Source: Candidatus Omnitrophota bacterium
GTDB taxonomy: Bacteria; Omnitrophota; Gorgyraeia; Gygaellales; Profunditerraquicolaceae
Length of the DNA stretch: 64,000 bases
Direction of reading: 5' to 3'
Assembly (NCBI GenBank): GCA_022710715.1
Contig: JAKLGJ010000003.1
Span: forward strand, 358,558 to 422,557
A program made the translations under genes and the position numbers. The notes under the pieces are model-generated. The model was given only the letters and a program-made list of their open reading frames with translations. It had not been told where the DNA came from and searched no databases. This document shows, one piece after another, positions 16,533 through 58,191 of the stretch (its first letter is position 1; the number at the start of each line of letters is the position of its first letter).

Positions 16533-16541
16533 AACCTCTCC

Positions 16542-27100: not shown

Positions 27101-28911
27101 CAAACCCCTTCATCGCCCTGCAATAATTGTCCGGAAGAAGTCAAAACCACCAGGCCGGGAGAATAGATCTCCTGGATATAAAGCGGCGCCGAATCCTGCT
27201 CGATCCAGATATCGCCTGCGGAAGATTCCGGGTTGATCGTAGCCCGGACATAGCCGACATTGGTCAATATGGGGTTGGCCATGGTTCCGATACCGGAACC
27301 GGCCCGCATATTAAGGAAAGCTGTCCCTGTTTCTGAAGTGGCGGAAATTACATATTCTCCGGCATTGTAAATCGCGCCAATGCCCGGATCATAGGTAGTG
27401 TCCCATTCATACCAGAAATATTCTTCGCCTTCGGAAAAACGCTCGTGATCGGCGTAAAGATTGAGGGTGGAATTGTAACCGAGGAAAATGTCGCCGGTGA
27501 TGGTGATATCTTGCCAGGCATCAACCGTGACTGTGGTGTATTCACCGATGGTACCGCTATACTCGTTGGTGGCAGGGTCTAATAATGCATTACCGGGGGT
27601 AAATCCCGGAGGCGCCCGGCCGTTTAAAATGCCGTAAAAGCCCAATTGGGCGAAAGCGTCTACCCGCGCGACGCCGCCGTTACCGGAAACCGCGCCTGCG
27701 GAAAAATCTATTACTGCGTTCTTATTCACGAAAGTGTTGCCGTTTTTGGAATCGACCAGGATCCGGCCGCCGTTCCCGGCCAAACCGACTGCCTGCGCTT
27801 CCGTAACGCTGTTTTCATCCAGAACCGTCAAGGTATCGCTGACAATACTGATCTCTCCGGCTGTGCCCTGCTCCAGAGCATTGGCGGAAATGATACCCTG
27901 CTGCAGAATTGTTGCGGCTTCCAGGGCTATTTTGCCGCCATCCGGGCTGGTCGCGCTCAAAGCATCGGCTACGATCCTGCCTTCCGGGGCATTGGTAATC
28001 CCGGCATCGCTTACCTTAATATGTACTTGTGCAGCTTCCAGGGTACCGCTGTTGACTACTGGCGCCCCTTCCGCTACCAGTTCGATCACCCCGTCCTTTT
28101 CCACCAGAGAGGTTACTTTCACCAAACCGGTGTTATTGATGGCGTAATCGAAAACGCGATTGAGCACTTTAGCGGTCAAAATAACTTTGCCGCCTTGAGC
28201 CAGGATGGTGCCGCTATTCTTGACCGCGGAATCGATCCTCCGGCCATCCGGTCCGAATAACTCTTCCTGCACAGCCTGATCGATCGCTACGGAAATGGCG
28301 TTGGAATCTTCCAGCGACAAAGTCATCTTTTCACCGGAAGCCAGGACCACGGTGCCCAGATCAGCCTGGATCACCATTCGGTTATCCACTGCGTGTCCCA
28401 GCAGACAGACATAACCGCCGGCCTGCGCGGTGATCGTGCCCTGATTGATGATGTATCCGGCTTTACCGGCTTTGCTGAAAACGTAATTGCCTTTCAGGAA
28501 ATCTTCATTGGAAATGTTCAAGGTCGAAGCGACCAATCCGGCAACATCAACCTGCGAACCCGGTCCGAAAACAATCCCGTTGGGGTTGATCAGGAATACT
28601 TTTCCATTGGCGCTCAATGAACCCAGAATGCTGGAAGGATCACCGCCAACCACGCGGTTCAGCGCTACCGCGCTGGCAGAAGGCTGCGCGAAACGCACTG
28701 CTTCCTGCGCGGCAATATTGAAACTGTTGTAATCCACAATGAGTTTATCGGAAGGGGTAGTGACGGTCAGGGAATCGGCTTGAGAACGATCAAAGGTTGC
28801 GCTGCCGGCAACCACATTCTCGCCTTCAGGCAAGGCATAAACAAAAGAACAGCAACTTAAAAGGATGCTGGTTGCTGCTATCAGTATTCTTACATGGGTT
28901 TGTTTCGGCAT
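21121..28911 (-). CDS. Giant two-partner-secretion exoprotein (TpsA/filamentous-haemagglutinin-like, 2596 aa) with an N-terminal TPS domain, an internal LamG/concanavalin-like domain, and a long Tyr/Ala/Ser/Gly-rich beta-helical repeat region
   Basis: Signal peptide, then a TPS domain with ALNRV....NPNGIVFG (aa ~30-300). LamG-like block YGQALYFDGINDYFNIG...CWYRG...WYQVSMVRDG..SLYIFND...FWIGG...IDDVRVYASALS (aa ~745-930). It is followed by about 1500 aa of degenerate ~38-aa repeats (consensus ~[SA]GD[VI].[LV].A.G.I.L....YSSA.A.A). The C-terminus has an acidic linker (DEEEPVIPEPEPVEEEEEF) and a ~100-aa tail domain. Encoded immediately downstream of the tpsB gene. Confidence 0.8.
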   Translation of the reverse strand: MPKQTHVRILIAATSILLSCCSFVYALPEGENVVAGSATFDRSQADSLTVTTPSDKLIVDYNSFNIAAQEAVRFAQPSASAVALNRVVGGDPSSILGSLSANGKVFLINPNGIVFGPGSQVDVAGLVASTLNISNEDFLKGNYVFSKAGKAGYIINQGTITAQAGGYVCLLGHAVDNRMVIQADLGTVVLASGEKMTLSLEDSNAISVAIDQAVQEELFGPDGRRIDSAVKNSGTILAQGGKVILTAKVLNRVFDYAINNTGLVKVTSLVEKDGVIELVAEGAPVVNSGTLEAAQVHIKVSDAGITNAPEGRIVADALSATSPDGGKIALEAATILQQGIISANALEQGTAGEISIVSDTLTVLDENSVTEAQAVGLAGNGGRILVDSKNGNTFVNKNAVIDFSAGAVSGNGGVARVDAFAQLGFYGILNGRAPPGFTPGNALLDPATNEYSGTIGEYTTVTVDAWQDITITGDIFLGYNSTLNLYADHERFSEGEEYFWYEWDTTYDPGIGAIYNAGEYVISATSETGTAFLNMRAGSGIGTMANPILTNVGYVRATINPESSAGDIWIEQDSAPLYIQEIYSPGLVVLTSSGQLLQGDEGVCIEADELYLEAYGGIGDNIEEGLAISVNKLVAYNEGYGGIYLYNDQDLVVLVAENYAAQTETAIYAAGDIRVRYGIISEGDVYLEAQGQNGIILNTLADIVAPDLATVYLRADNGAIIRRNLEVEEYGLRAYWNFDQYYSYYYAQDVSGNGYSAYASGTPDIVPEGIYGQALYFDGINDYFNIGTDFGFGAEPFTLLCWYRGTQLRDKNVGLLGASLSPLYTTGYALETLNGSLQSWVNNDMDNSAIAINDNNWYQVSMVRDGTEGSLYIFNDDVKYGSEFAVPEGTVDTGASFWIGGFGARSRLTEGAIDDVRVYASALSGFEIYSQTLIQPGTGRVSAGAAMLSAASGIDAALNVQAVAAENLGSGDIYISNDRDLQIVHPDEYADGMYNAGGNIIVQAMAGLTVHNDVFTDAAGGSIYLSAGGDILVDNQVSISSTVGGGQGEPVQNAVSGDVTLDAGGAITFNYGVNISSYASGSGPAYDNSAVSGAVSLIAGGNISLDWANISSQARASGSETATATSGNVSVSAGGLLNNIEGSQIFSSADANVYNGLSGSTAIATSGSVTLSGNAGISSVGSGYGADVYSYAHASAGSRALANSSSVILSADSGNIDLSMTDVYSSSDSQTSMPNEPGSLSQAYAGAEYYDYNNYEWSYLAVMIDAGGAIALSNGSHVYADTSAQGEAAQAYGLAGDITIDAGGDITLSEQYLNSEARTYAYQRAESVSGRITVASQDGDIEIPSTAQSNASADVRLDAGEAYATADDIDVHSWYRSVNLNAAVSTAEAYSSGDGTFPNLLQAVTGDVTIYAGQTLRVYYANSEVISEYPALNTSVTAGNVNLAGYDVYLNECYVYSNAQALGGTYSYATAGNVTIDASNFLDVNQDIYSSAQAEGSEYARASSGSVNIEAGSVDQTCAFYSSAIASASDAQAYSGDLNLMINGNYTLSEFSVYSIASVAGTGTLEAESGDLWITAYGALNGIGASIYSEASLYGEVVEADSVSLTAGDVALYSSGDMQLTYTPAQSNAAAYAREYAYASTGNIDITCYGLFSLLGSPDLNSRAEAYASGGEYPQAYAYAGSVSVYGYNGITAQGNPEYEATASFTSWATAEGDAYAYAYASDVSLESASGSISLYEGFLSSLAEASTGEGDEAVAYSGDISLIAAGTLSSDGVDPNTRAIADVSYNSTAESGDILIEAGSVELFNGAEAYTSASADAFNQATARSGDVDVTALTGAIELDQTINSSATAYGNGSAEAFSGDVTLFAEEGTVGIAGSLYSSAVAEASGDAGATSGDVGVLAMGIYLDSGMDNISSIYSAASALSWGEGAAAATSGEVVLDAGSFSEESGISIAGESSVYSSASAMGGSVATAVSGDMGLFTNGSINFNSAHVYTLASAGTSYVGGDVPASDTADATAGEILVSAVGSFIIDLVSGLDSTAYAYAMDTAAAVSGPLEISAGGDFSVLSASQVYSMAQATGQGAVALAASATAQAGAVSVVAGGDIEIDVDGYDFPVRSEAIAENAQIPFETFGGLSLQAQGDLISYNSLMGDSITAIADSDQDGSGQLRFAGEYLELVGFRHTFQGANDFYVSEGADGSFYLTLDEASATLELYTPVEDAEPLSISIFSTLEETLTVYDLEPRTEYIYLYSAGDLYLYSNLEAQEIVLHADENLNGYGSLYSDTGDGMPALTAEYFSLQSAGDIVFSGEIILCGDAEEPAFGAYLYSDDDGLDGISIRSTAGDIAVETPETGLAAYYNLETLYAAGDIILNAGINGAASGLYLIAGGSIIAGDIEGAHITSAGPVYIYGGSYSYTGEYPDYEIIYSESSIGTTDNPLDVLITGEGALYLISYGEIEGVSAALTGSVREQTTPDAITVYAAPGIVYFNDIPDEEEPVIPEPEPVEEEEEFIAPVGDIMAYEPVVTNVADLDTYQFSSTIGSVYFYHPLTSTDMGAFDQFSVGADAYELKDGQLQLVGHNDLLEFFQAFDEKQKENAGN

Positions 28912-29027: not shown

Positions 29028-30731
29028 TTAAAATTGCTTGGATGCTGAAAGCCAGGGATGGAAATGATCGCCGTCCGACGGTGTTTTAGCCAGCGGCCAG
29101 GCCAGGTCAACCCGCAGGGAAAAATCCTCCGGCAGGGTAAACCTGAAACCGAAGCCCACGCTGCGCAGAGTGCCGCGTTTCCTCTCTCCTGCCTGGGGAT
29201 TCTTCAGACGCACCCAGCCCAGATCATAGAAGAGCGCAGTTTTGAAAGCATTGTAGAATGTTGCTTTGGAGAAAGGAACCTTTAAATCTTTGGGACAGCA
29301 ATACGGCGGAATGATCCATTCCAAAGTGGAAGTGAATCCCTGATCCCCGACATATTCGCCGGAAGGATACCCTCTGACATTGGAGATGCCGCCAATCTGC
29401 ATCTGCTGGGAAGCAGCCAGGACATACGGGGAAAGCTGCAGCTGATTTTTCCACAAAACCGCGGTGGACCAGGGAGCTTTCTGCAAATGCAGCAGATTCG
29501 CGGAATGCTTAAGGAACTTGCCGCCTGCGCCGGTTCGCGAAGCGCGGCTGTCTTTAGCTTTCAAGCCGCCCATGATGCCGGAAAATCCAAAATCGGATTC
29601 GGGAGAAAAAATCGTTCTGCCGCCCCAGGGATTGGAGTAATCGATATCAAAACCCAGCTTCGCCCAACGCAACCGGTCCCGGCTCTGTTCGACTCCGGCC
29701 TGAAAGTTGAACGAATCCAGATAATCGAACCCGGTGTTGAACGTAACCGTCAGATCGTTGCGGCTTAACATTTCGTACATGCCGAATATTCCGTACATCC
29801 GGCTTTTTCCCCGGGACTGTAAAGCCCGGTATTCCTGACCCAGGGCAAGTTTCGAGTGGGTAGCGTAGACGCCCACTTTTGTCCGCGGATTCACCGGCGC
29901 CAGGTAACGAGCGGCAAGCAAACGATAATCTTCCGCATCAGCCAGCTGATACTGCAAAGAGAAAATGTCGTCAAAACCGAGCAGATTGTTATGGCTTAAG
30001 GTGGTGGAATAACGGTCTTTGCGCACATAACGGGAACCGTAATTGTCCCAATCCAGCCGGGCGTGCAGAGGCAATCGGTCGGTCACCTGCAAAACGATAT
30101 CCGTGGACCCGGGGTCTTTTCCCGGGACCAGCACTGCTTTGACCTGGCGGTCGGGATGCTCATTGAGCTTGGAGAGGCTTACCCGGAGATCGTCATAGTT
30201 GAACGGCTCTCCCCTTTCAAGGATGATCGCCTTGCGGATCAGAGCGGATCGAAAAAAACGGTTGCCCTTTACCTCCACATCCCCGGTAGTTCCCTCTATG
30301 GCCTTGATCTGCAGCTCGCCGCCTTCGATTTTCTGGGGAGGCAGGTAGCCGCGCGAGGTCACATACCCCTTACTGCGGTAAGCGTCGGTAATCAGATCGA
30401 CCACTTTCTGCATATCCGCTAAAGAAATCTCTTTGTTCTCGAACGGAGCCACGATATCCGCGATTTCCATCTGGCTTAAGAGAGTAACGCCGGTAACAGT
30501 GATCTTCTTGACGAAAGCCTTTTGATCTTTGGAAGGCAACGGCTGTGAAACTACCGGCTGCTCTTCTATGACCGGAGCCGCCGGTTCCTGTTCAATGCGT
30601 TCCCGCAGAGCTTTCTCCTGCTCGATCTGACGTTCCTCCTGCTGGACTTTCTCCGCCTGCTGGGCAAGAACCAACGAAGGGAATAACAACGTCATAGAGA
30701 TGATCACTATGCCGATCTTTGATCTGTTCAT
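29028..30731 (-). CDS. ShlB/FhaC/HecB-family TpsB outer-membrane transporter (POTRA domains plus 16-strand barrel)
   Basis: Signal peptide. POTRA region ITVTGVTLLSQMEI...YRSKGYVTSRGYLPPQKIEGGELQIKAIEGTTGDVEVKGN. A C-terminal barrel has alternating hydrophobic residues and ends SASKQF. Confidence 0.85.
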   Translation of the reverse strand: MNRSKIGIVIISMTLLFPSLVLAQQAEKVQQEERQIEQEKALRERIEQEPAAPVIEEQPVVSQPLPSKDQKAFVKKITVTGVTLLSQMEIADIVAPFENKEISLADMQKVVDLITDAYRSKGYVTSRGYLPPQKIEGGELQIKAIEGTTGDVEVKGNRFFRSALIRKAIILERGEPFNYDDLRVSLSKLNEHPDRQVKAVLVPGKDPGSTDIVLQVTDRLPLHARLDWDNYGSRYVRKDRYSTTLSHNNLLGFDDIFSLQYQLADAEDYRLLAARYLAPVNPRTKVGVYATHSKLALGQEYRALQSRGKSRMYGIFGMYEMLSRNDLTVTFNTGFDYLDSFNFQAGVEQSRDRLRWAKLGFDIDYSNPWGGRTIFSPESDFGFSGIMGGLKAKDSRASRTGAGGKFLKHSANLLHLQKAPWSTAVLWKNQLQLSPYVLAASQQMQIGGISNVRGYPSGEYVGDQGFTSTLEWIIPPYCCPKDLKVPFSKATFYNAFKTALFYDLGWVRLKNPQAGERKRGTLRSVGFGFRFTLPEDFSLRVDLAWPLAKTPSDGDHFHPWLSASKQF

Positions 30732-30925: not shown

Positions 30926-31663
30926 ATGTTCCTCTTTATCCGGCTGGTACTGGCGCATTTCCTGGGAGATTTCCCCTTTCAGTTCGACACCATTTACAAA
31001 CTGAAGTTCCAGGGGATCAAAGGAATCATCCCGCATGTACTGATCATTGCCGGCTGCAGCCTGTTGCTCTCCTGGCCTTATCTCAACCTGCCGCTGATGT
31101 GGGTCTTTATTGCGTTTGTCACCGCCGTACATTTGATCGAAGATTCCATCAAACTGAATTTCGGGACTAAAAAGTTCAGCTTCTGGGCATATATCGTCGA
31201 CCAACTGGTACATGTGGGCACTATCGCGCTTTTGCTGCTTACCGATCTCAAGCATCTTCCCCCTCCGGCAAACCAGGAAAACGTCCTGGTGCGGATCTAT
31301 ACCAATAACCATCTGATGCTTTTCATCATCGCGCTGATCGTGGCCACGTATAACGGGCATTTCCTGATCCGCTGCTTCAAAGACACCTTTTTTACCCGAG
31401 TAAATCAATGTTATATGCACGAAAAATGGTTCGGGATGGTAGAACGGGGAATGATCGTAGCGCTCTTCTTCGCTCGGGTGCCTCTTTTGATCCTGCTGGC
31501 AGTTAGCCTGTTGCTGCGGCCGCTGGCCTACCGCCTGCTCAAAAAACCTCTCTCTTTACACTCCTGCTTCATATCCAGAGCGGATACCGCGTTGAGCTGG
31601 ACGGTGGGAATGCTCACCGGCATAGCCCTCTGGCTACTTCAAACCCACTACCCGGTATATTGA
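30926..31663 (+). CDS. DUF3307-family polytopic membrane protein
   Basis: The only clear plus-strand gene in this region. N-terminal LAHFLGDFPFQ motif typical of DUF3307. 6-7 TM helices. Confidence 0.45.
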   Translation: MFLFIRLVLAHFLGDFPFQFDTIYKLKFQGIKGIIPHVLIIAGCSLLLSWPYLNLPLMWVFIAFVTAVHLIEDSIKLNFGTKKFSFWAYIVDQLVHVGTIALLLLTDLKHLPPPANQENVLVRIYTNNHLMLFIIALIVATYNGHFLIRCFKDTFFTRVNQCYMHEKWFGMVERGMIVALFFARVPLLILLAVSLLLRPLAYRLLKKPLSLHSCFISRADTALSWTVGMLTGIALWLLQTHYPVY

Positions 31664-33883
31664 AATAGGTTTGGCCTTACCCTTGACCGAGATCGGCTCG
31701 AGTTTTTCCACGTTGATCTGGTCCTTGACCTGCTCGTAGGTACCCTCGCTTATGATGATCTCGTCTTTGCTCGCCGCCGCGCAAAGCCGGGCGCCCAGGT
31801 TCACATTATCGCCGATGACCGTGTAATCCATGCGCGCGGCAGACCCCATGTTCCCCACGACCATATCCCCGGTATTGATCCCGATCCCGATCTGCAAAGC
31901 CTGTTTCTTCTCCTGATCCCACTTTGTCTTGAGCCCCTTCATCTTTTCCTGTATCTCGATGGCGGTGCGCACCGCCATCAAAGCGTGGTTGTTGACATGC
32001 TGATTGCCCGGCGCCCCGAAGAACGCCATCAGCTCATCTCCTACGAATTTATCCAGCGTGCCGTTATACTTGAAAACCACATCCACCTGCTGGGTGAGGA
32101 TCTCGTTGAGCATGGCCACGACTTCTTCGGGTTGATGCGATTCCGAAAACGAAGTGAATCCTCTGACGTCGGAGAAGATGACCGTGAGCATCCTGCGCTC
32201 CCCGCCCAGCTTCAGGCGGGAAGGATCATCGAGCAACTCGGTGATGACCGCGTCGGAAAGATAATGGCCGAAGGCGTGTTTGATCCAGAGCTTCTCTTTC
32301 TCTTCGGTAAAGAAACGGAAGCTGGTGATGGACATGAAACCGAAGACGACGATGCCCGTCGGCCCCACCAGGTCGATCCAGAGCCCGGCAGTGATAAAAA
32401 GATATAAAGCCAGCAGGAAAAAACCCACCGCATACCCCAGAACGATAAGCAGGCTCTTCCAGAGTTTAAGCAGCGAGCTGAACCCTACCACCAGAGCGGT
32501 GAACAGAAAGATCAGTATGCGCGGCAGCGCCGACTGCCGGACGATGAAACGCTCGGTGAGAATGGTATTGATCAGGTTGGAGTGCGTGCCGACCATGGGA
32601 TAATGGTCCTGCAGCGGGATCGGACGCAGGTCATGCGTGCCGGTGGCGGTCAGGCCGACGATACAGATCTTATCCCTGACTATGGACGCAAGCAGATCTT
32701 TAAGCTTCTGCGCGTCCTTGCGCCAGTAAGCAAGCTCTTTTTCGGTCAACGCCTCTCCCGGCTGTTCCAGTCGCCGGCGGTTCTGCTGCAGCTCCAGGAT
32801 ATCGCCATACGATACATGCTTGAAGGTGGAATCCCAGGTGCCGTGCCAGTTCACCAGCATGCATCCCTGTTCATCCACCGGGATAACGATATCCTTGATC
32901 CCGGGATGAAAACGCGCTCCTTTAAAAATGATCCGGTTCCTGCCGATTTCCACCTTCTTTACTTCCAACCGGTCAAGCAGCGCGGCAACGGTCAGCTGGG
33001 GCAGGATATTGTCATGGTAGCGCACGAATAACGGGACCTTGCGGGTGACCCCGTCCAGATCAGGATCGGCATTGATGAACCCGCTTCCTTTCATCCTCTC
33101 CGCGAAAAGACGGATAGGGACATTCAATCTTCCGGACTCTTTTTTGAACGGCCAGCGGTCAACGGGGATGTCCGCGGCGAATCTTTTCACGAAAAAATCC
33201 ACCAGTTTTTGATGTTCCACTTCCCCCTGGACGATAATCTCTTCGGCGTCAAACAAAAACCACCCGTAGGTTTTCTCCATCTGATCCAGGATATCCTCAA
33301 ACGAACTGTCCGGCTGCTTGCGCAGCAGCTCGCGCGCTACTTCTTCAAGCAGCATTCTCCTGGCTTCAGGAAGCTTTTCTCCCACCATCTTGATATCGAT
33401 GCCCAGATGCGCGGCGGCTTCCCGCGCGGAGAGATCGATTTTCTTCAGGAGCAATTCTTTCAGTTTGGGGAACGGGAAAGCTTTGACTTCGTCGAAATAA
33501 AACGGCAGGTAGGTTATGGCAGAACGGTAGATAGCGTCGTTGAACAGCGCGTCCTGCTGCGGGTCATCCTTGAATTCTTCGCTGAAAATGACATCCCAGA
33601 GCACCTGCTTGGCGCCGCATTCTTTCAAGAAGGACGTCAACTGGGCGTGATAGCTCCTCGGCCAGGGCCATCTGCCTACTCGATCCAGACTTTTTTCGTC
33701 TATATCGATGTGCACGATCGGCCCCCGGGTAGGCATCGCCCCCCGAAGGATAAAACGCAGGTCTAACGCTTTGAGTTCAAGAATCTGGTAGGCCCTTGAC
33801 TGTAAGGAAAGCAGCAGCAGGCCCGCCACGCCGAGCGCAAAAGCAAGGCTGACCAGTAGTTTAATGCGGGTTTTCTTATTCAC
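31634..33883 (-). CDS. CHASE2-sensor class III adenylate/guanylate cyclase
   Basis: N-terminal TM, then a CHASE2 region (ICIVGLTATGTHDLRPIPL..YPMVG) and a TM bundle. The C-terminal cyclase domain has TVIFSDVRGFTSFSE ... FVGDELMAFFGAP ... GINTGDMVVGNMG. Confidence 0.85.
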   Translation of the reverse strand: MNKKTRIKLLVSLAFALGVAGLLLLSLQSRAYQILELKALDLRFILRGAMPTRGPIVHIDIDEKSLDRVGRWPWPRSYHAQLTSFLKECGAKQVLWDVIFSEEFKDDPQQDALFNDAIYRSAITYLPFYFDEVKAFPFPKLKELLLKKIDLSAREAAAHLGIDIKMVGEKLPEARRMLLEEVARELLRKQPDSSFEDILDQMEKTYGWFLFDAEEIIVQGEVEHQKLVDFFVKRFAADIPVDRWPFKKESGRLNVPIRLFAERMKGSGFINADPDLDGVTRKVPLFVRYHDNILPQLTVAALLDRLEVKKVEIGRNRIIFKGARFHPGIKDIVIPVDEQGCMLVNWHGTWDSTFKHVSYGDILELQQNRRRLEQPGEALTEKELAYWRKDAQKLKDLLASIVRDKICIVGLTATGTHDLRPIPLQDHYPMVGTHSNLINTILTERFIVRQSALPRILIFLFTALVVGFSSLLKLWKSLLIVLGYAVGFFLLALYLFITAGLWIDLVGPTGIVVFGFMSITSFRFFTEEKEKLWIKHAFGHYLSDAVITELLDDPSRLKLGGERRMLTVIFSDVRGFTSFSESHQPEEVVAMLNEILTQQVDVVFKYNGTLDKFVGDELMAFFGAPGNQHVNNHALMAVRTAIEIQEKMKGLKTKWDQEKKQALQIGIGINTGDMVVGNMGSAARMDYTVIGDNVNLGARLCAAASKDEIIISEGTYEQVKDQINVEKLEPISVKGKAKPISIYRVVGLK

Positions 33884-33907
33884 TACTCTCTCTAGCCTTC
33901 TATGCCA

Positions 33908-34945
33908 TTAGAAACGGTAATAGGTGGTCAAGGCGATCAGTGAGCCGGAATAACGCTCTGAAGGTTCGTTAGAGCGATTCTGCCGATACGTATAGCTCAA
34001 ACCGAAGGTCGTGGCTTTATTATACGCGTAATAGAGCGCGGTATTGATCAGATAGGTCTTGTCGCGCTCGTGCGCGCCGGCGTCATTGATCAACGTGCGG
34101 CTGCGGAAATCACGATACTGCCGGGAAGCCGAAGCATACCCCGAAAACTTATCGTTAAAAATATGGGTGAACGCGGCGCCCAGCCGGTATGAATCATAAT
34201 CATAGTAATTCAGGTATTTATCGTTGGAGTTATTGTTGAAATACTGGAAAGTGAGCTTCAGCATGTCTTTGGTGAAATATTTACCGATCTCGTAATCGAC
34301 GGTATTGCGCACATCCTTGCGGTTCTTGGTGGTGACCAGAGCGCTGGTGGTGCGGTTATACCTCCTGGAATAATCGCGGTAGCTCAATCCATAGCCAAGG
34401 GTTTGGAACATCTTATTCCCCAGCATATGCTTGAGCTTGCCGCCCAGTTCATGCTCGGTGTAATCATCGACTCCGGTCTGGATATATTCGATGGAGTCAA
34501 AAGCGTAGCCGCCGGACAGATTCAGATTTTTTGTCAACGCGTGATCGATCTCGCCGCTGACGCCGTTACGGATGACATCGAGCTTGCTTTCTCCGGCGTA
34601 CATCAGGTTCATCACTTCATAACTCGCCGTTACCCCGGTTTTCTCGGAAAGAGAGCTGACGAACGTCCCGCGCAGGAACTGCTGGGTATACATATCCCCT
34701 TCCCGGCGGCTATCCAGCCAGGTATTGTTATCATAACCAACGGAGACCGCGGCCAGCCAGCCGACCATGCCTTTGTCGATAAGCGTCTGTTTCGGCTCAA
34801 GATAGATCTTCTTATGCGGCTCCAGATACATCTGTTTCGTGCGCGGAGTCACTTCCTCATCGGGCTTATCCTGCGCGAAACCGGCGGCAGGAATAAGCGC
34901 CAACCCCAGGATTACCATTAGCGACTTACGATACATGCTCTTCAT
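33908..34945 (-). CDS. Putative outer-membrane beta-barrel protein
   Basis: Signal peptide (LALIPAAGFAQD). Alternating amphipathic strands rich in Y/T/S. The C-terminal residue is aromatic (YYRF). Confidence 0.5.
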   Translation of the reverse strand: MKSMYRKSLMVILGLALIPAAGFAQDKPDEEVTPRTKQMYLEPHKKIYLEPKQTLIDKGMVGWLAAVSVGYDNNTWLDSRREGDMYTQQFLRGTFVSSLSEKTGVTASYEVMNLMYAGESKLDVIRNGVSGEIDHALTKNLNLSGGYAFDSIEYIQTGVDDYTEHELGGKLKHMLGNKMFQTLGYGLSYRDYSRRYNRTTSALVTTKNRKDVRNTVDYEIGKYFTKDMLKLTFQYFNNNSNDKYLNYYDYDSYRLGAAFTHIFNDKFSGYASASRQYRDFRSRTLINDAGAHERDKTYLINTALYYAYNKATTFGLSYTYRQNRSNEPSERYSGSLIALTTYYRF

Positions 34946-34970
34946 TGTCCCTCCTTAGAAAAATCCGGGT

Positions 34971-35804
34971 TTAATACTGCGGCTCTTCTTCGATAACCGT
35001 ACGCAATTCTTCGATCTTCTTTTCGGTATTGGAATCGTCGGTCGCTTCTTTCAGGGTATCGACGACTTCTTCGATCACGCCGGTCTGCTCGACTGCCTCG
35101 GCCGCTTTCTCCTGCACGGTCTCACGCAACCTGCGTGCGCCTTCGGATTCGACGCGCTCCCTGCCTTCAGCGCGCGAAGTCAGGTCTTCCTTGATATTAT
35201 CGAACCGGTCGAATTCCCGCATGCTGATCTGGCTCAAAGCTCCCGGAGATTCAAAACGGTCGATAAAGGTTTTGAACCCCTGCGGCAGCATAATATCCGA
35301 AAGCTGGTTCTTTTCGGCGTCGAATGTTTTGACAAACACCGTGTCTTTATACGCGGATACCTCGTCGGAATCAACTTCGCTGTACACCATATAGCTGGAT
35401 CCTCTGACGCCGGCTACCGCGGAAGGCGTGGTGACTTCGAAGCTCAACCCTTCCTTAATATTCTCCATGTTGGAATACACCCGGCCGCGGGAAAGGTTCA
35501 AACGGTCGATCTGATCGTCGGATTCGGTATTCAGGACCACCAGGGTCTTTTCTCCCAGACGGATGGTGTTCTTTTTCTCCGCATCGAGAGCGATATCCAC
35601 TTCGGAACGCCGGGCGGTGCGGATAGAATCGCCGATATCCACTTTCATGCCCTTTTCCAAAGTCTTCCAGACCCCGTCGGTTGACGACATGACCTGGACG
35701 TTTCCCTTGACATAGATAGCTTCGGCTGCCTCAACCAGCGCGGCGCCGCAGAACAGCCCGCATAACAGCATTGCGCCTGTAACCACTTTCTGATATTTTT
35801 TCAT
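34971..35804 (-). CDS. FecR-domain periplasmic protein with an acidic, probably coiled-coil C-terminal tail
   Basis: Signal peptide. FecR-like core GNVQVM....W..L..G..V..GDSIRT...SEVDIAL......RL.E.T......FEVTTPSAVAGVRGS. The C-terminal 90 aa are E/K-rich. Confidence 0.6.
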   Translation of the reverse strand: MKKYQKVVTGAMLLCGLFCGAALVEAAEAIYVKGNVQVMSSTDGVWKTLEKGMKVDIGDSIRTARRSEVDIALDAEKKNTIRLGEKTLVVLNTESDDQIDRLNLSRGRVYSNMENIKEGLSFEVTTPSAVAGVRGSSYMVYSEVDSDEVSAYKDTVFVKTFDAEKNQLSDIMLPQGFKTFIDRFESPGALSQISMREFDRFDNIKEDLTSRAEGRERVESEGARRLRETVQEKAAEAVEQTGVIEEVVDTLKEATDDSNTEKKIEELRTVIEEEPQY

Positions 35805-35864
35805 GCCTGCCTCTCCCTTTTATACGCCTATTAGCGACATTCCATCCAACGTCATCGATCTACT

Positions 35865-37604
35865 TTAGAATCCTTTGGTCACACACCACCAGATATGCGG
35901 GGAATCGCCGTCTTTCGGCTCATCTTCCGTAAGCGGCCACCCTACATCGACGCGGGTGGACAGGCTTTTGTCGGGAACGGTGAAGGTAAAGCCAAAACCG
36001 GCGGAAGCCAGTTCAACGCGTTTTGCGTCTGTAGGCTGCGGATTCTTCAACGTCGCCTTAGCCCAATCCATAAACGTGAACAGTTTGATCGCATCGTACA
36101 TCTTGGTCTTGGAACCCGGGACGTTCATGGAGCGGGAAACGCCGAACGGCGGAAAAGTAAACCCGGCCATCAGGGATTGCCCGGAGTCTCCGGGAGCCTG
36201 GGCGCGGGGATAACCGCGGTCGTCGATAACGCCCATGAAACCGCCCACGCTGAACACGTTCACGCCGGTCAGCGACTGGTTGGAAAGCTGCCAGTGGCCC
36301 TTGGTGATAAAATCGATCCCGTTGAAAAGCTTCTGCCTGCGGGCGATCACCAGGTGATTCTTCTTGTAACCGCTGCCCGCGCCCTTGACCGAAGTAGAAT
36401 CGTCCTCGCGGGTAGAACCGCCGAACAGCCTCGGGATGCCGATCTCCAGGTCATTGCTGATCACCCATCTGCCGTATTTATCCGCGCGGTTGAAATCCAG
36501 CCCCCACATAAGCGCACGGAACAGATCGGAACTCTGCTGGCGTCCGTATTTCCACCAGTGGATATCCTTCTGGACATAGCCGTATTGCGAACTCAATTCA
36601 AAATCCGGCTGATCGACCAGGGACTGATAGAACCAGAAATACCATTTATGTGCGTGCTTCTCGAAATCCGTATCCGGGTTGTCCGACCCGACATAATCTT
36701 CCTTCTTATACGGCATGTAATACAGTTCCAGCTTCCAGTTCCGGTTCAAGGGAAGGAAGTAATCCGCGTCGTAAAGCTTATGCGTATTACCTTCCGTCAA
36801 CTGCGCCTTGAAGGTAATGGAATCGTCATGGCCGGTAAGGTTATTGTTGGTGAAGAATGTCTTGTACCGTCTATAGTTGATGAATTCCGACCCGTAATTA
36901 TCCGTCTGCAGGGTTACGTGCAGGGGAGATTTATCTTTCACGGTCAGGGTAATATCGGTAAATCCGGTGGCGACATTGGGATCGCAGGTAAGCGCGACTT
37001 TGCGGTCCGGATGCTTGTTCATCTTATACAGATCGTTATTGAGCTCTTTGAAATTGAACAGGTCGCCTTCCTGCAAGCCGACCTTCTTTCTCAAGATCTC
37101 TGTGGAGAACGTCTGGTTGCCTTCGATAATGATCTTGCCGGTGCGGCCTTCCGAAACCTGTATCTCGAGAATTCCCGCAGAAAGCTTGTCCGTATTGACC
37201 ACGCCGAAAGAAGTGATGTAGCCTTCGCGAGTGTAGGCGCGGGTGACCGTATCCGCGACCATCTGGATCTGCCGGGCGGATAGTTCCCTGTTTTCATACT
37301 CCGCCTTGAGCTTGTTGATCGCTTCCGGGGCGAGAATGGTCGAGCCGACCACCGAAACTTCGCTGATCTTCGTCTTGCCGGCGGGAATGACCGGTTTGGG
37401 CATCTGGGCTTCGACGCGCTGTTTAAGTACGATCGCCGGAGACTTAACCCTCTTGCTTGAAAGACTATCGGCTATCGCCTGCGCCTTGGGACCGTCCTCA
37501 TCTCCTCCGTCTACGGCGAATACCGCAGCGGGAATTGCCATGACCGCGAAAAACAGGGTGAGCGCAAAAAACAGTGAATTGCGTAACCATTCTTTGTTCA
37601 GCAT
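35865..37604 (-). CDS. ShlB/FhaC-family (TpsB-like, Omp85 superfamily) outer-membrane transporter with no adjacent TpsA
   Basis: Signal peptide. POTRA region ISEVSVVGSTILAPEAI...YTREGYITSFGVVNTDKLSAGILEIQVSEGRTGKIIIEGN. The barrel ends VTKGF. About 30% similar to the TpsB at 29028 across the POTRA region. Confidence 0.8.
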   Translation of the reverse strand: MLNKEWLRNSLFFALTLFFAVMAIPAAVFAVDGGDEDGPKAQAIADSLSSKRVKSPAIVLKQRVEAQMPKPVIPAGKTKISEVSVVGSTILAPEAINKLKAEYENRELSARQIQMVADTVTRAYTREGYITSFGVVNTDKLSAGILEIQVSEGRTGKIIIEGNQTFSTEILRKKVGLQEGDLFNFKELNNDLYKMNKHPDRKVALTCDPNVATGFTDITLTVKDKSPLHVTLQTDNYGSEFINYRRYKTFFTNNNLTGHDDSITFKAQLTEGNTHKLYDADYFLPLNRNWKLELYYMPYKKEDYVGSDNPDTDFEKHAHKWYFWFYQSLVDQPDFELSSQYGYVQKDIHWWKYGRQQSSDLFRALMWGLDFNRADKYGRWVISNDLEIGIPRLFGGSTREDDSTSVKGAGSGYKKNHLVIARRQKLFNGIDFITKGHWQLSNQSLTGVNVFSVGGFMGVIDDRGYPRAQAPGDSGQSLMAGFTFPPFGVSRSMNVPGSKTKMYDAIKLFTFMDWAKATLKNPQPTDAKRVELASAGFGFTFTVPDKSLSTRVDVGWPLTEDEPKDGDSPHIWWCVTKGF

Positions 37605-37706
37605 GGATACATCCTCCTTTTACAAGACGCCAAACCTACATACGCACAGGTATATAGGTATTATGTTAAAGACTCCCCGTAAAATTGTCAAGCTAATACT
37701 GCGCTC

Positions 37707-38384
37707 TTATTTTTCGTTAAGCTTTTGCGAAAAATAGTTGATAAAAATGACCACAAAGAGCACGCAAACCATTAATTGCGCCATGACCACTACCTGCCCG
37801 GCATGATCCCTGGCGGTGATATCCCCGAATCCCACCGTGGTAGTAGCCACAATGCTGAAATACAAAGCGCCGATCGCATCCACCGGCCGGGAAAGCAGAT
37901 CATACGCCCGATAGATCACCGCGAAACCGAAAGCGATCTCGGCGTAATGCAGAAAGATCAATACCAGCGACCGGCGATAGGAAATTGCCGCGGAATGGAC
38001 GTCCGCAAGGAAGATCAAATGGAGAATGTGCACCAGCGTATCGCTCATCAGATACACCACCAGAAAGATCACTGCCGGCGATTGATACCCGCGCGTAAAC
38101 AGCACTGCCAGGGGGAAGAAGAACTTGAGAACCGCATAGACCTCGACTGCCAGCCTCCGGCCGCGGCTCCCCCACCGGCCGAAAATATCGCGGATGAGCA
38201 AAACCGGATACAAAAACTGGATCGCGCACAAGAACAGACGCACCAGCCGCTCCAGACCGTAATTTTCCTCGTTCCAGACTTTCTTGAGGAACTTCCACTG
38301 CTGGGCGTAGGCTTCCGCGAGCCGCGGTTCGCCGCCTGAAGCGGTTGCAGGATTCAAAAAAAGTTTAAGCAACGTTTTATGCAT
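37707..38384 (-). CDS. Potassium-channel-like ion channel (pore loop TTVGFGD)
   Basis: C-terminal pore helix with the selectivity filter FSIVATTTVGFGDITA. Several TM helices. Confidence 0.65.
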   Translation of the reverse strand: MHKTLLKLFLNPATASGGEPRLAEAYAQQWKFLKKVWNEENYGLERLVRLFLCAIQFLYPVLLIRDIFGRWGSRGRRLAVEVYAVLKFFFPLAVLFTRGYQSPAVIFLVVYLMSDTLVHILHLIFLADVHSAAISYRRSLVLIFLHYAEIAFGFAVIYRAYDLLSRPVDAIGALYFSIVATTTVGFGDITARDHAGQVVVMAQLMVCVLFVVIFINYFSQKLNEK

Positions 38385-38395: not shown

Positions 38396-39226
38396 CTAGT
38401 TCTCGGAAATAGTGTAATACTGCATTTCGTCATCCGGAGTAAACCATTTGCCGTCCGCGCCGGCGGAAATATACTTTTTATCCGTGATCTCCCTGCCGTC
38501 GTCGCTGTAAAAGTATTCCTTGGCGGACGAGACCGCATCATCACCGGTAAACCACTGCCCATCCGGCCCCTTACCGTTCTTCTCGGTATGATACTCCACT
38601 GCCCGGCTCAACCTGCCCTGGCTGTCATACTCGAAACGGTGGTATTTCTCCAGCTCTTCAGGCACGTACTCCTCATCCCGGATGATCAATCCTTGCGGAT
38701 TATAGGTAAACGTCATCACGCGGATCTTTTTATTCCTGGGATCGAAACGGGTGATCCGGGTTTTCTTGCCGTCGGCGTCATACGCATACGCCGCGGTAAA
38801 CTGCTTATGACCTGTAGCGTCAAAACCGAGCTCTTTTTCCAGCTTGCCGTTACGGCCGTAACGCATCACTTGATAGTCCTGCAGTTCATCATCGGCGGTA
38901 AAAGCCGCGGCATCCTTACCCGGTTTAAAGGTTGACTTCTTGAGAACAACGCCTTTCGCGTCCAGATCTTTAAGGTAATAGAGATAGACCTGGTCGTCCT
39001 GGGTAAACATCAGTTTATCCGGCCCGGCGATATACCGGACTTCCTTTTTCACCAGCGCGACTTTCGGGTTGATCATCCGCTCCTGCTTGATATCGGCGAT
39101 CCCGGTCTTCTGCACCGTAAACCGCTCTTCCTCGACGTCGCGGATTTGAGCGTAGCCCTGGACCGGCGCGCACGCTATCCAGCTTACCATTCCCAGGCAC
39201 AGCATTTTCATCAGTTTTATATTCAT
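38396..39226 (-). CDS. Secreted protein with short YD/RHS-type repeats
   Basis: Signal peptide. Repeats are YAYDADGKKTRITRFD, FEYDSQGRLSRAVEY and YFYSDDGREITDKKY (consensus Y.YD..G.L). Only 276 aa, so not a full Rhs toxin. Confidence 0.5.
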   Translation of the reverse strand: MNIKLMKMLCLGMVSWIACAPVQGYAQIRDVEEERFTVQKTGIADIKQERMINPKVALVKKEVRYIAGPDKLMFTQDDQVYLYYLKDLDAKGVVLKKSTFKPGKDAAAFTADDELQDYQVMRYGRNGKLEKELGFDATGHKQFTAAYAYDADGKKTRITRFDPRNKKIRVMTFTYNPQGLIIRDEEYVPEELEKYHRFEYDSQGRLSRAVEYHTEKNGKGPDGQWFTGDDAVSSAKEYFYSDDGREITDKKYISAGADGKWFTPDDEMQYYTISEN

Positions 39227-39236
39227 CGTACACTTC

Positions 39237-40328
39237 CTATTTTTCCGGCGCGCTGAATACCGCGGGCGTATTAGCCGTGGCGAGCGTCTTAACCACGCGA
39301 AAACCGATCACCTGCCGGCTCAAATGATCAAAACTGCGATACCGGTTATTATAGACGTCCGGCGTCAATACGCAATCCATGATAAAGGGACGCCCCATCT
39401 CTTTGCGGTAACCCGGATCGAGAAGAAAACTTCCGCCCCGGACTACCCGCGCCGCACGGAAATCCTTGAACACCGGCAGATTGAAGAATAATACCTGACC
39501 GGGACCCGCCGGCGCGGTCTGCCGGGCTTCGCCGGCGTAAAAATCGTTATACCAGTCGTTGCACCATTCCGCGACATTACCGGCCAGATCGGCGATACCC
39601 AGTTTGCTGTCGCCTCGGGGAGAATACGAACCTACCGGCCGGGTATCCACATCCACCGGATTCTTCACCGTATGCTTGATATTCGCCAGCGTATCTTTGG
39701 CCGGAGCCTTTCCCCAGGGATAGGGGCGCCGGTCGTTATACGTAGCCGCATATTCCCATTCCGCCTCCGTAGGCAGACGATAACCGCTCTTGCCGTACAC
39801 CTGGCAGGACCAGTCGTCAAGATTATATAACGGAGTCAGTCCTTCTTTTTCGCTAAGCATATTGCAGTAGAATGCCGCGCCGTACCAGGAGACCTCGACC
39901 ACCGGAAAGGTCTCCTTGCCCGGATGCGGCGCAAACTTTCCGCCGGCAAAAGTGATCTGGGAATGCTCGTCGAACACATCCTGGTATTTCTGCGGAGACT
40001 TACTCACGCCGCGGGCTTCTCTTCTTTTAGCGGTCTCGGATAAGGCCGCAGTATCCAGATAGCCCCTGGCCAGGGCGTAATTGAGCATGTCCGCGTAGTT
40101 CTGATTGGTGACTTCGTATTTGCCGATGGCGAACCCATCGGTCAGCTTCACCTCATGCACCGGCTGGGCATTATCGAAAGCGCTGCTGCCCATGGTAAAC
40201 GCGCCTGCCGGGACCTGCACCATGGTTAACGGAACATTCTGCGGCTCTCCATCCGCCGCCAGAGCCTGCGCCGCGATAATCAGCGCAACTCCCATCAAAG
40301 TTACAGCTATCATACCTATTTTTTTCAT
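39237..40328 (-). CDS. Formylglycine-generating-enzyme (FGE-sulfatase/SUMF1) family protein, secreted
   Basis: Start taken at MKKIGMIAVTLMG (signal peptide); the longer ORF in the track is an N-terminal over-extension. Motifs GYRLPTEAEWEYAA, GNVAEWCNDWY, RVVRGGSF. Confidence 0.8.
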   Translation of the reverse strand: MKKIGMIAVTLMGVALIIAAQALAADGEPQNVPLTMVQVPAGAFTMGSSAFDNAQPVHEVKLTDGFAIGKYEVTNQNYADMLNYALARGYLDTAALSETAKRREARGVSKSPQKYQDVFDEHSQITFAGGKFAPHPGKETFPVVEVSWYGAAFYCNMLSEKEGLTPLYNLDDWSCQVYGKSGYRLPTEAEWEYAATYNDRRPYPWGKAPAKDTLANIKHTVKNPVDVDTRPVGSYSPRGDSKLGIADLAGNVAEWCNDWYNDFYAGEARQTAPAGPGQVLFFNLPVFKDFRAARVVRGGSFLLDPGYRKEMGRPFIMDCVLTPDVYNNRYRSFDHLSRQVIGFRVVKTLATANTPAVFSAPEK

Positions 40329-40368
40329 GGCATCCTCGAATAGGAACGTTCTTGTTAACGCCCGGCTC

Positions 40369-41976
40369 TTAGAAACCCAGGCGGCATCCTGAATTCTTCC
40401 CGTCCTCCGACTTGGGAAAATTTGCCGCAAAGCGCAGAGAGATGCGCAGATATTTCGGTGCGGGACTCGACCACACTCCGCCGCGGTTGCCCGCGCCTGC
40501 GCCGTCTTTACCCGGCCAGTTGGCGACATTGGCGAAACCGTCTTCGGCCAGAACTCCGTCGCCGTGCTGCCCGTCATAGATGCGGCCGAGCTGATGGCCG
40601 ATGGTAATGCAGCGTTCCCACACGTTGCCGGAAAGATTGTGTACGCCGTAAAAAGAAGCGCCGGCATTGACCCTGGGATCGATACCCGCGTGCTGACTGT
40701 TCTCGAAAAGCTCGCCTGAAACCGGGCCTTCGAATCCCGGATTATCCGGAACCGTCTTTTTACCTACATCAAAAGGAGCGATGCCGCCGCCGAAACAGGC
40801 GTTGACTGCGCCGGTCTGGGGAACCTTCTTCTCCACACCGGAACCGTCGGCGCCGTCAAAGGTCTGGGCGCGTCCTACCAGAGGCGAATCCATATCCACG
40901 CCCCAGGCCAGTTCGTTAACCAGCGGTTGCCCCGGGCCGCGGGCTGCTTTTTCATATTCCAGCTCGGTGATCGGCCTTAAACCCGCCCAGTCGCCGATCG
41001 CGGTAATATTCGACCAGGACATGAAATTGACCGCGCGGGCCGGAGCGTAGGTGTAGAATTTCACCGGCTCGGCGGTCCCATTGCCTTTTTTCGCCACCAC
41101 GATGGCGTTACGCAGATGCTCTTCTTCACTGTTGGTCTTGACATAGTAATTCTTGATCTCGTCGCCGCTGATATCCGATTCCACCATGCTTTGCTGCTGC
41201 TTACGGGTCAGCGTATTCACAAAATTGCAGAACTGCTGGGAAGTCAATTCGTATTTCATCACCCAGAACGGATCGAATCCCTTGGGGAATGTCTGCGGCA
41301 CGGTGAACGGAGTATCTTCGCGGCTGCGGGGATTGTCCTGATCGCAGAACAACGCGCCGTCGACTTTATCCACCAGGATCGGCTCTTCGGATTTGATCAG
41401 ATAAGAACCGTTATTAGGATAGGTATACAGGGTATTATCCGGGCCATCCGGTCCTTTGGGGTCGCCCACATAGAACTTGCTCCGGGGAATATAGACCATT
41501 TCAAAACCAAAAACCTTTATCGCGGTCTTTTTTACCTGATCCGCGGTCAATCCGTCTCTGGCAAAATCCCAGACCAGCACGGCATTGCGGGAAAACACGC
41601 TGCCGCTGCCTTTGGTCTTGAAAATGAATGCGCCGGTCTTCTCTGCCGGGATCCACAGCCCCAGATCCGGATTATCCCCCGGAGAGAACAACGCCGGCGC
41701 GGCGTCCACGCCGTTGAACGCTTTGCCGCTGGCGCTGGTCAAAGACACGTGCTTCCAGGTCCGGTCAGGCGCGAGGAACTTGGCAAACACCCAGACTCCG
41801 TCGCAATTCGTTTCGTTCTTCCAGGAATTATCCCAGGAGAGATTAAACTGCACCTTGGCGGCTTTGCGGTCGGTATTGATCTCGCTGACCATCCCGTTAT
41901 CGATCTTCAAATGGCTGGCAAAAGCCAGCATCGGAACCAAGAGCATCGCTGCAACCAACAACACCAGCTTTTTCAT
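40369..41976 (-). CDS. FGE-sulfatase/SUMF1 family protein, secreted paralog with a large N-terminal extension
   Basis: Signal peptide MKKLVLLVAAMLLVPMLAFA. C-terminal FGE-like motifs ELEYEKAARG, HNLSGNVWERC, NRGGVWSS. The N-terminal 300 aa match no recognised domain. Confidence 0.7.
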   Translation of the reverse strand: MKKLVLLVAAMLLVPMLAFASHLKIDNGMVSEINTDRKAAKVQFNLSWDNSWKNETNCDGVWVFAKFLAPDRTWKHVSLTSASGKAFNGVDAAPALFSPGDNPDLGLWIPAEKTGAFIFKTKGSGSVFSRNAVLVWDFARDGLTADQVKKTAIKVFGFEMVYIPRSKFYVGDPKGPDGPDNTLYTYPNNGSYLIKSEEPILVDKVDGALFCDQDNPRSREDTPFTVPQTFPKGFDPFWVMKYELTSQQFCNFVNTLTRKQQQSMVESDISGDEIKNYYVKTNSEEEHLRNAIVVAKKGNGTAEPVKFYTYAPARAVNFMSWSNITAIGDWAGLRPITELEYEKAARGPGQPLVNELAWGVDMDSPLVGRAQTFDGADGSGVEKKVPQTGAVNACFGGGIAPFDVGKKTVPDNPGFEGPVSGELFENSQHAGIDPRVNAGASFYGVHNLSGNVWERCITIGHQLGRIYDGQHGDGVLAEDGFANVANWPGKDGAGAGNRGGVWSSPAPKYLRISLRFAANFPKSEDGKNSGCRLGF

Positions 41977-46096: not shown

Positions 46097-46112
46097 AGAA
46101 CCTCCTGAACAT

Positions 46113-46144
46113 GTCATTGCGAGCCCCGCAGGGGCGAAGCAATC
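46113..46144. repeat. Left flanking nested-hairpin repeat of the GIY-YIG cassette (gtcattgcgag-ccccgcagggg-cgaagcaatc)
   Basis: The unit is itself a hairpin: outer arms attgc/gcaat and inner arms gcccc/ggggc. It is an imperfect inverted repeat of 46438..46475. Confidence 0.7.
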
Positions 46145-58178: not shown

Positions 58179-58191
58179 GTCTTCCTCCTCT

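Follow-up and report, generated by a model that had tools for sequence, protein, structure and literature searches.

Putative FecR-Domain Co-Sensors of CHASE2 Receptors in Two Gene Clusters of an Omnitrophota Bacterium

A stretch of 64,000 nucleotides (64 kb; hereafter the window) from a Candidatus Omnitrophota bacterium (contig JAKLGJ010000003.1, positions 358,558 to 422,557) was found to contain two clusters in which a FecR-domain protein is encoded together with a receptor carrying CHASE2, a widespread extracytoplasmic sensor domain whose signals have been described as unknown (PMC5192318). The pairing was evaluated by profile searches, by comparison with related loci and by a survey across lineages, and the results argue for the FecR-domain protein being the partner of the CHASE2 sensor outside the cytoplasm.

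Gene Content of the Two Clusters

The open reading frames (ORFs) named in an initial annotation of this DNA were all recovered at the positions given there, on the minus strand, and the domain assignments made there were upheld for both clusters by Pfam. Public copies of the contig (anaerobic-digester metagenome; Candidatus Omnitrophota metagenome-assembled genome GCA_035390565.1) carry independent gene calls that agree with these ORFs, the protein lengths being 579, 277, 345 (336 in one call) and 749 amino acids (aa) for cluster 2 (31634-37604). The features of this cluster, in the order of transcription and followed by the convergent gene at its end, are:

37663..37691, minus strand: promoter-like site TTGACA-17-TAACAT, weak evidence from a consensus scan, in the 102-bp gap 5' of the TpsB-like gene
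35865..37604, minus strand: orphan TpsB-like (Omp85-family) outer-membrane protein, 579 aa, with signal peptide, conserved N-terminal segment, POTRA_2 and POTRA domains and ShlB-type barrel (Pfam POTRA_2 57, POTRA 42.9 and ShlB 33.1 bits, all above the cut-offs)
34971..35804, minus strand: FecR2, exported FecR-domain protein, 277 aa, with an all-beta FecR domain at about 27-192 and an acidic helical tail (Pfam FecR 42.4 bits, cut-off 24)
33908..34945, minus strand: predicted outer-membrane beta-barrel of 14 strands, 345 aa, disordered near the N-terminus (residues 24-49) and with YYRF at the C-terminus (Pfam BBP2_2, beta-barrel porin, matched below threshold only)
31634..33883, minus strand: CHASE2 receptor with class III nucleotidyl cyclase, 749 aa (Pfam CHASE2 166.8 and Guanylate_cyc 95.6 bits)
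30926..31663, plus strand: DUF3307 membrane protein, its gene convergent with that of the cyclase, the 3' ends of the two sharing 30 bp (Pfam DUF3307 52.8 bits)

The four minus-strand genes are separated by gaps of 60, 25 and 24 bp. Promoter-like sites around the cluster were no more numerous than in shuffled sequence. By hydropathy, the cyclase receptor comprises a first transmembrane (TM) helix (9-27), an extracytoplasmic CHASE2 region of about 420 aa, a TM cluster (447-519) and a cytoplasmic cyclase domain (566-739).

Cluster 1 (13862-17516) contains a FecR gene at its head and a CHASE2 gene at its end, with gaps of 9, 8 and -4 bp between the genes:

16542..17516, minus strand: FecR1, FecR-domain lipoprotein, 324 aa, with lipobox LTAC (Cys22), FecR domain and basic Q-rich tail (Pfam FecR 34.8 bits, cut-off 24)
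16140..16532, minus strand: STAS-domain protein of the anti-sigma-antagonist type, 130 aa (Pfam STAS 64.1 bits)
15712..16131, minus strand: RsbW-like serine kinase / anti-sigma factor, 139 aa (Pfam HATPase_c_2 96.3 bits)
13862..15715, minus strand: CHASE2 receptor with PP2C (SpoIIE) phosphatase, 617 aa (Pfam CHASE2 183.8 and SpoIIE/PP2C 135.1 bits)

Both receptors present the same arrangement in hydropathy plots, with CHASE2 held between an N-terminal TM helix and the TM cluster and followed by the cytoplasmic output domain; the ectodomain covers residues 28-446 or so in the cyclase receptor and 27-298 or so in the PP2C receptor. Cluster 1 encodes together a PP2C phosphatase, a STAS antagonist and a HATPase_c_2 kinase, the combination that defines RsbU-RsbV-RsbW partner-switching modules. 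In contrast to these modules, the phosphatase here belongs to a membrane receptor that takes its input through an extracytoplasmic CHASE2 domain and has a FecR lipoprotein as its partner. The genes scanned near cluster 1 include none for a sigma factor.

The FecR-Domain Proteins

FecR1 and FecR2 share 26% identity over 213 aa (pairwise E = 1e-24). Their assignment to the FecR family, which the initial annotation had left open to failure in profile searches, held against Pfam PF04773 with the scores given above. The oppositely charged tails described there were also confirmed, with net charges of +21 for FecR1 and -12 for FecR2. Both proteins contain the core motif TP[ST]AV[AS]G[AV]RG[ST], as TPTAVSGARGT from residue 135 in FecR1 and TPSAVAGVRGS from residue 126 in FecR2; the motif is, however, a general signature of the FecR family and not a special feature of this pair. 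In an alignment made by eye and with Pfam model coordinates, it falls on TALG^TEF of Escherichia coli FecR, which contains the self-cleavage site Gly181-Thr182; the corresponding site of FoxR is Gly191-Thr192 (PMC9249621). The residues RG^S (134-136 of FecR2) and RG^T (143-145 of FecR1) both occupy the self-cleavage position, and RG^T is found at the same position in NsrA of Sinorhizobium meliloti and in the Paraburkholderia and Pseudomonas partner proteins. It is this shared position, from E. coli FecR to NsrA, Paraburkholderia and Pseudomonas, that identifies the motif as a family signature.

FecR2 has an N-terminal hydrophobic segment, read here as a signal peptide, and no lipobox, and is predicted to be a soluble periplasmic protein. 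In fold comparison it is PupR-like, resembling the periplasmic domain of FecR/PupR-type regulators. No meaningful match was returned by phmmer against PDB sequences, and none by tblastn against plasmids. All of the 120 FecR2 homologues listed are standalone proteins (119 with PF04773 alone and one without a precomputed Pfam match), and no fusion of FecR with POTRA/ShlB or with CHASE2 was found among them.

A classical anti-sigma role for these proteins was considered and rejected on architecture. E. coli FecR shows DUF4880, whereas the window proteins show PF04773 only, without DUF4880, a TM anchor, FecR_C (PF16344; no match) or STN. Sigma-70 region 2 and region 4 domains and TonB-dependent receptor domains were absent from the genes scanned around either cluster and from the rest of the window. 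Unlike the FecA-FecR-FecI and PupB-PupR systems, the window has a CHASE2 enzyme and not a sigma factor as the receiver, and neither an extracytoplasmic-function (ECF) sigma factor nor a TonB-dependent transducer occurs among the genes scanned.

FecR Genes beside CHASE2 Genes across Lineages

The initial annotation had called for a gene-neighbourhood survey of the two families. A six-sequence CHASE2 alignment was used to collect 80 CHASE2-anchored loci from a collection with one genome per species, representing 28 lineages, and the ORFs of these loci were annotated with purpose-built FecR, TpsB and CHASE2 hidden Markov models (HMMs). FecR was found to be enriched beside CHASE2, with a FecR ORF no more than 2 kb from the CHASE2 gene in 63 of the 80 loci. 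In 59 of these it lies no more than 200 bp upstream on the same strand, in three it lies 1.1-1.8 kb upstream and in one just downstream. The outer flanks of the 80 loci (928 kb) contained no FecR match, and the chance that all 63 matches would fall in the near zone if evenly spread is about 1e-38. When collapsed by lineage, the count is 19 FecR-positive lineages of 28, including Patescibacteria, a spirochaete and Alpha-, Beta- and Gammaproteobacteria. The Pfam FecR domain was confirmed in all 14 partner proteins sampled.

The partnership was observed with three CHASE2 outputs, namely cyclase, PP2C and histidine kinase, and the pairing therefore tracks the sensor and not the output. At the junction of the FecR and CHASE2 genes there is an overlap of 1 or 4 bases in four annotated proteobacterial loci, which is compatible with translational coupling. 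The partner proteins vary in their accessory parts: LysM occurs in many Proteobacteria and DUF5667 in Patescibacteria, the proteins of S. meliloti, Methylocystis and a spirochaete have tetratricopeptide repeats (TPR) and a long C-terminal region, and no accessory domain is present in Pseudomonas and Omnitrophota. In the Omnitrophota, the partner is encoded with one or two outer-membrane proteins.

In three Patescibacteria / Uhrbacteria loci (L039, L068 and L076), FecR proteins of about 700 aa adjoin CHASE2 genes; DUF5667 was present in the two that were scanned (L039 and L068), and the L039 receptor is a CHASE2 cyclase. These lineages are not known to have an outer membrane, so that the coupling of FecR to CHASE2 would not depend on outer-membrane components.

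Conservation of the Clusters

Relatives of cluster 2, anchored on the TpsB-like protein or on FecR, show that the cluster is conserved among Omnitrophota at identities as low as about 44%. In L007 (54% identity), L098 (49%) and L101 the gene order is that of the window, namely TpsB-like, FecR, barrel, CHASE2 cyclase and convergent DUF3307. Elsewhere the TpsB-like and FecR genes are separated by an ion-channel gene (L100) or by inserted GAF and SpoIIE genes (L011). In L099 the order is TpsB-like, TPR protein, 606-aa FecR protein, cyclase and DUF3307; this FecR protein was examined as a possible FecR-barrel fusion, which was rejected as it has no similarity to the barrel family. Upstream of the cluster, L099 has an adhesin-like gene and L101 has OEP/MFP/MacB efflux genes; neither context is related to that of the window, which indicates that the linkage within cluster 2 is more than inherited synteny. 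Wherever the flanks of an Omnitrophota locus are complete, there is at least one gene for an outer-membrane barrel next to FecR. The convergent DUF3307 gene follows the CHASE2 cyclase gene in each of the six related Omnitrophota loci long enough to include this position (L007, L049 and L098-L101), even where the other flanks differ. The barrel and DUF3307 families were found in Omnitrophota loci only, and DUF3307 was not seen near CHASE2 in other phyla.

Cluster 1 is likewise conserved, in nine metagenome loci of which none has the flanking genes of the window. These were obtained in a metagenome scan with the CHASE2-PP2C protein as query; the same kind of scan with FecR1 as query returned no relatives. 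The order FecR, STAS, RsbW-like and CHASE2-PP2C recurs in L102 and L104-L109, with receptor orthologues of 52-57% identity. FecR1 orthologues head the operon in L102-L110, and the HATPase_c_2 gene is kept in L102 and L104-L111. In L103 the FecR gene directly adjoins the receptor gene, and in L110 STAS alone was undetected. A second STAS gene was observed just 3' of the CHASE2-PP2C gene in L102 and L105-L109 (e.g., L102:8037-8423), a place taken in the window by TspO, and an extra PP2C-like gene lies 5' of FecR in L102 and L105-L107 (e.g., L102:1428-3338).

The Outer-Membrane Proteins of Cluster 2

The outer-membrane beta-barrel proposed in the initial annotation is predicted to have 14 antiparallel strands and to be monomeric, and it resembles the 14-stranded monomeric channels CymA and OmpG. 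It differs from these channels in sequence (only 8-10% identity) and in that its gene lies in a signalling operon.

The closest solved relatives of the TpsB-like protein are CdiB (6wim, E = 4.5e-14) and FhaC. Like the FhaC, CdiB and ShlB transporters, it has two POTRA domains, a ShlB-type barrel and the L6 R-G-[YF] motif; unlike them, it has no adjacent TPS-domain cargo gene in any of six related loci, and its neighbours are signalling genes. The L6 motif R-G-[YF]-P is invariant in 68 TpsB-like orthologues (DRGY in the window protein), and the segment following the signal peptide is also conserved across orthologues. The TpsB-like protein is under purifying selection and very probably functional. 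Among the plasmid matches listed in a tblastn search with this protein, none was from Sinorhizobium.

A canonical two-partner-secretion (TPS) pair, which the initial annotation did not mention, was also found in the window:

29028..30731, minus strand: canonical TpsB (Pfam ShlB 85 bits)
21121..28911, minus strand: canonical TpsA, 2596 aa, with a TPS domain (Pfam, 118 bits) and Laminin_G_3

The canonical TpsA gene lies 116 bp after its own TpsB gene, and the pair starts 0.9 kb beyond the cyclase gene, with the DUF3307 gene between. The two TpsB-type proteins of the window are paralogues with 32% identity over 534 aa. No TPS-domain gene occurs within 6-8 kb of the cluster in L007 and L098-L101, and the canonical pair beside the cluster is specific to the window genome among the related loci compared. 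The description of the TpsB-like gene as an orphan without a TpsA beside it therefore stands for all related loci examined, with the reservation that in the window itself a canonical TpsA, served by its own TpsB, begins just past the cluster, a circumstance which touches the condition named in the initial annotation as refuting, namely a TpsA cargo gene lying just beyond a rearrangement point.

Relation to Known Systems

The FecR-CHASE2 pairing itself is not new, having been noted for three clades, with genetic support in S. meliloti. In this species NsrA, a FecR-domain outer-membrane protein, is needed for signal perception by the CHASE2 cyclase CyaK, and the CHASE2 cyclases respond to a plant signal via NsrA (PMC13001267, PMC7529298). 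The nsrA gene is located on pSymB, abutting cyaK, and encodes FecR (66-160), TPR (about 417-531) and a C-terminal region of about 600 aa, which is treated as the barrel in the literature. As in NsrA-CyaK, a CHASE2 class III cyclase gene is preceded in the window by a FecR gene, that of FecR2, from which it is separated by the barrel gene alone, and an outer-membrane beta-barrel forms part of the module. NsrA is a single polypeptide of 1197 aa, whereas the FecR (277 aa) and barrel (345 aa) of the window are encoded by separate genes, with no TPR; the nsrA loci, unlike the window, contain neither a TpsB-like nor a DUF3307 gene. The notion that the TpsB-like and FecR proteins of the window represent a split NsrA, which presupposes POTRA/ShlB domains in NsrA, was rejected, as Pfam assigns to NsrA only FecR, TPR and the C-terminal region, with no POTRA or ShlB.

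In Burkholderia, a 'BiofilmReg' operon encodes a response regulator, a LysM-FecR protein, a CHASE2 histidine kinase and DUF4136, with PA4035-PA4036 as its counterpart in Pseudomonas (PMC5192318). These operons share with the window an exported FecR-domain protein encoded directly upstream of a CHASE2 receptor, an arrangement reproduced in many of the survey loci; they differ in the peptidoglycan-binding LysM of the partner, in the output (histidine kinase and response regulator) and in encoding no outer-membrane proteins. In Campylobacterota, the genes for a FecR-domain outer-membrane protein, a TPR protein and a phosphodiesterase lie in a cluster with that for a CHASE2 cyclase, and one pathway has been proposed for them (PMC9239204). 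This cyclic AMP (cAMP) cluster resembles the window in joining a CHASE2 cyclase to a FecR-domain envelope protein; by its published description it differs in the phosphodiesterase and TPR protein and in that no TpsB-type gene is reported. What is new here is the lineage-specific Omnitrophota variant, with an orphan TpsB-type protein and a small CymA/OmpG-like channel.

Neighbouring Genes

A small Ion_trans_2 (K+-channel-type) gene (37707..38384, minus strand) lies directly upstream of the TpsB-like gene. Its orthologue adjoins the module in L007, L049, L098, L100 and L011, and in L100 it is the gene that sits between the TpsB-like and FecR genes; a TMEM175 channel gene is found nearby in its place in L101, and a Zip transporter with a cyclic-nucleotide-binding domain is encoded in L100. 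Further upstream (38396..41976, minus strand) are two FGE-sulfatase-family genes and a gene for a 276-aa exported protein with weak DUF6156/DUF4595 hints only. This block is syntenic with the module in L007, L098 and L049 and not in L099 and L101.

At least three PP2C-type signalling proteins are encoded in the 64 kb. Besides the CHASE2-PP2C receptor, these are a protein of 515 aa in which HATPase_c_2 (RsbW-like kinase) and PP2C/SpoIIE are joined to a cyclic-nucleotide-binding domain (50974..52521, minus strand) and a dCache-HAMP-PP2C (SpoIIE) sensor phosphatase (58192..60102, minus strand). Other minus-strand genes of the window encode a multi-PAS histidine kinase of 1036 aa together with an AraC-type response regulator (668..4500), an ankyrin-repeat protein (57552..58250) and a protein in which Lcl_C is repeated four times (44099..46117).

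Proposed Mechanism and Alternative Explanations

The proposal of the initial annotation, in which the CHASE2 sensor has the FecR-domain protein as its partner outside the cytoplasm, is supported by the enrichment, by the three output types, by the gene junctions, by conservation of the clusters with different flanks and by NsrA-CyaK. This partnership is well supported, although already described, while the accompanying idea that FecR may be a cargo of the TpsB-like protein found no support. Both clusters are reasonably likely to be envelope-to-cytoplasm signalling modules, in which the exported FecR protein would serve as co-sensor or adaptor of CHASE2 in an inner-membrane receptor. In cluster 2, the outer-membrane proteins would admit or receive an external or envelope cue, FecR2 would bind the CHASE2 domain and relay the cue, and the activity of the cytoplasmic class III cyclase would shift, with a change in the level of cAMP (or cyclic GMP). 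A candidate reader of this nucleotide is the fusion protein at 50974..52521, which could link the CHASE2 cyclase to partner-switching regulation. In cluster 1, the lipoprotein FecR1 would play the same role for the CHASE2-PP2C phosphatase, which would dephosphorylate the STAS protein and so reset the RsbW-like kinase by partner switching. What the analysis shows directly is the domains and folds, the predicted export signals and membrane topology, and the adjacency of the genes with its conservation and its enrichment across phyla. We infer direct binding between FecR and CHASE2, the direction of the signal and what the channel, the TpsB-like protein and the DUF3307 protein contribute. By analogy with NsrA and FecA-FecR, the outer-membrane proteins of Omnitrophota may supply or admit the input.

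Several observations weigh against this interpretation or narrow it. The survey was biased, resting on one peptide pattern and on the best 80 matches to one query, with many Paraburkholderia, Pseudomonas and Marinobacter genomes; the enrichment is nevertheless robust, given the lineage-collapsed count and the internal control provided by the flanks. FecR was lacking in 17 of the 80 CHASE2 loci; the upstream DNA is shorter than 2 kb in seven of them and at least 2 kb long in the other ten. The latter ten were still negative with an iterated HMM at E < 1, so that an explanation as HMM misses was rejected and the absences are taken as real. Among the negative loci is the only GGDEF-output CHASE2 locus sampled, L017 from Omnitrophota, which has no FecR gene nearby. 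From the 17 negative loci it follows that CHASE2 is not always dependent on FecR. Within the Omnitrophota, L049 is syntenic with the window (FecR-barrel-CHASE2) and has no TpsB-like gene, and no 14-strand barrel was found in L099, so that neither protein is essential to the core mechanism. The barrel was also compared with the C-terminal barrel of NsrA as a possible homologue and this was rejected (BLASTP E = 0.14, hhalign probability 0.2%), the two being alike in architecture only.

A purely inherited synteny of the FecR and CHASE2 genes, with no functional coupling, is considered very improbable. Many of the sampled loci do come from closely related genera, and in several Omnitrophota loci the synteny extends to upstream genes such as the FGE-sulfatases, but the adjacency extends over 19 lineages in several phyla with varied FecR accessory domains and CHASE2 outputs, the 928 kb of flanks are free of FecR matches, the flanking contexts differ, and genetic evidence exists for S. 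meliloti. The remaining alternatives concern the outer-membrane proteins, and each of them is less well supported than the co-sensor interpretation. The TpsB-like protein could be a dedicated exporter of FecR, a TPS-like pair with a non-canonical cargo, by which FecR would end up in the outer membrane or on the cell surface. The two genes are 60 bp apart in the window and adjacent in L007, L098 and L101, no related locus has a TpsA beside the TpsB-like gene, and the invariant L6 motif suggests that the protein is probably an active Omp85-type machine. This idea is nonetheless judged improbable: FecR2 has no Pfam TPS-domain match and has the fold of a PupR signalling domain, L049 keeps the other three genes without a TpsB-like gene, and the TpsB-like and FecR genes are split by the ion-channel gene in L100 and by the TPR gene in L099. 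Outside the clade, a TpsB-type ORF was detected near CHASE2 in one of the 80 loci only, 8 kb away and on the opposite strand, and the other 79, including those of Patescibacteria, have none nearby; moreover, the periplasmic CHASE2 domain would be out of reach for FecR exposed on the surface.

It is equally doubtful that the TpsB-like protein serves a conventional TpsA encoded elsewhere (e.g., 21121..28911), its place beside FecR-CHASE2 being incidental. A clear paralogue, the canonical TpsB, is encoded 5 kb away, with a TpsA gene within 7 kb, and more distant TpsB-like relatives (L008 and L010) occur without FecR and CHASE2. The TpsA of the window, however, has its own TpsB immediately upstream, TPS-domain genes are absent near the cluster in L007 and L098-L101, and the TpsB-like gene stays just 5' of the FecR and CHASE2 genes despite the unrelated upstream contexts of L099 and L101. 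A somewhat less remote, though still unlikely, explanation is that the outer-membrane proteins are outputs or co-regulated cargo, that is, envelope or uptake functions co-transcribed with a FecR-CHASE2 sensor that controls them via cAMP. The resemblance of the barrel to general or substrate-specific diffusion channels (CymA, OmpG), the variation of the outer-membrane genes across loci in which FecR and CHASE2 are constant, and the recurrence nearby of transport genes (Ion_trans_2, MFS, TMEM175, Zip) would fit such a role. It is opposed by the retention of a barrel gene beside FecR in every Omnitrophota locus with complete flanks and by the sole characterised system, in which the NsrA outer-membrane barrel is needed for signal perception and so acts upstream of the cyclase (PMC7529298).

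Significance

The co-sensor interpretation may be carried further, tentatively and with rather low confidence. A TpsB-type Omp85 protein of the Omnitrophota would have been recruited from secretion into a signalling device, with or without the channel, in which its POTRA domains would dock soluble FecR to gate the CHASE2 cyclase. In a wider view, CHASE2 would not itself bind a ligand and would act universally as the receiver of FecR co-sensors, the input being set by their variable accessory parts (LysM, TPR-barrel, DUF5667 or outer-membrane partners). If true, this would account for the lack of a CHASE2 ligand to date. About four-fifths of the sampled CHASE2 genes are immediately preceded by a FecR gene, whatever the output enzyme, while the literature found on the pairing deals with single clades. 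The FecR proteins carry parts that anchor in or span the envelope and that differ between lineages. With these findings the experimental question moves away from "what binds CHASE2?". The Omnitrophota version represents a rare case of a cargo-less two-partner-secretion transporter in a signalling operon, in a phylum without cultured representatives.

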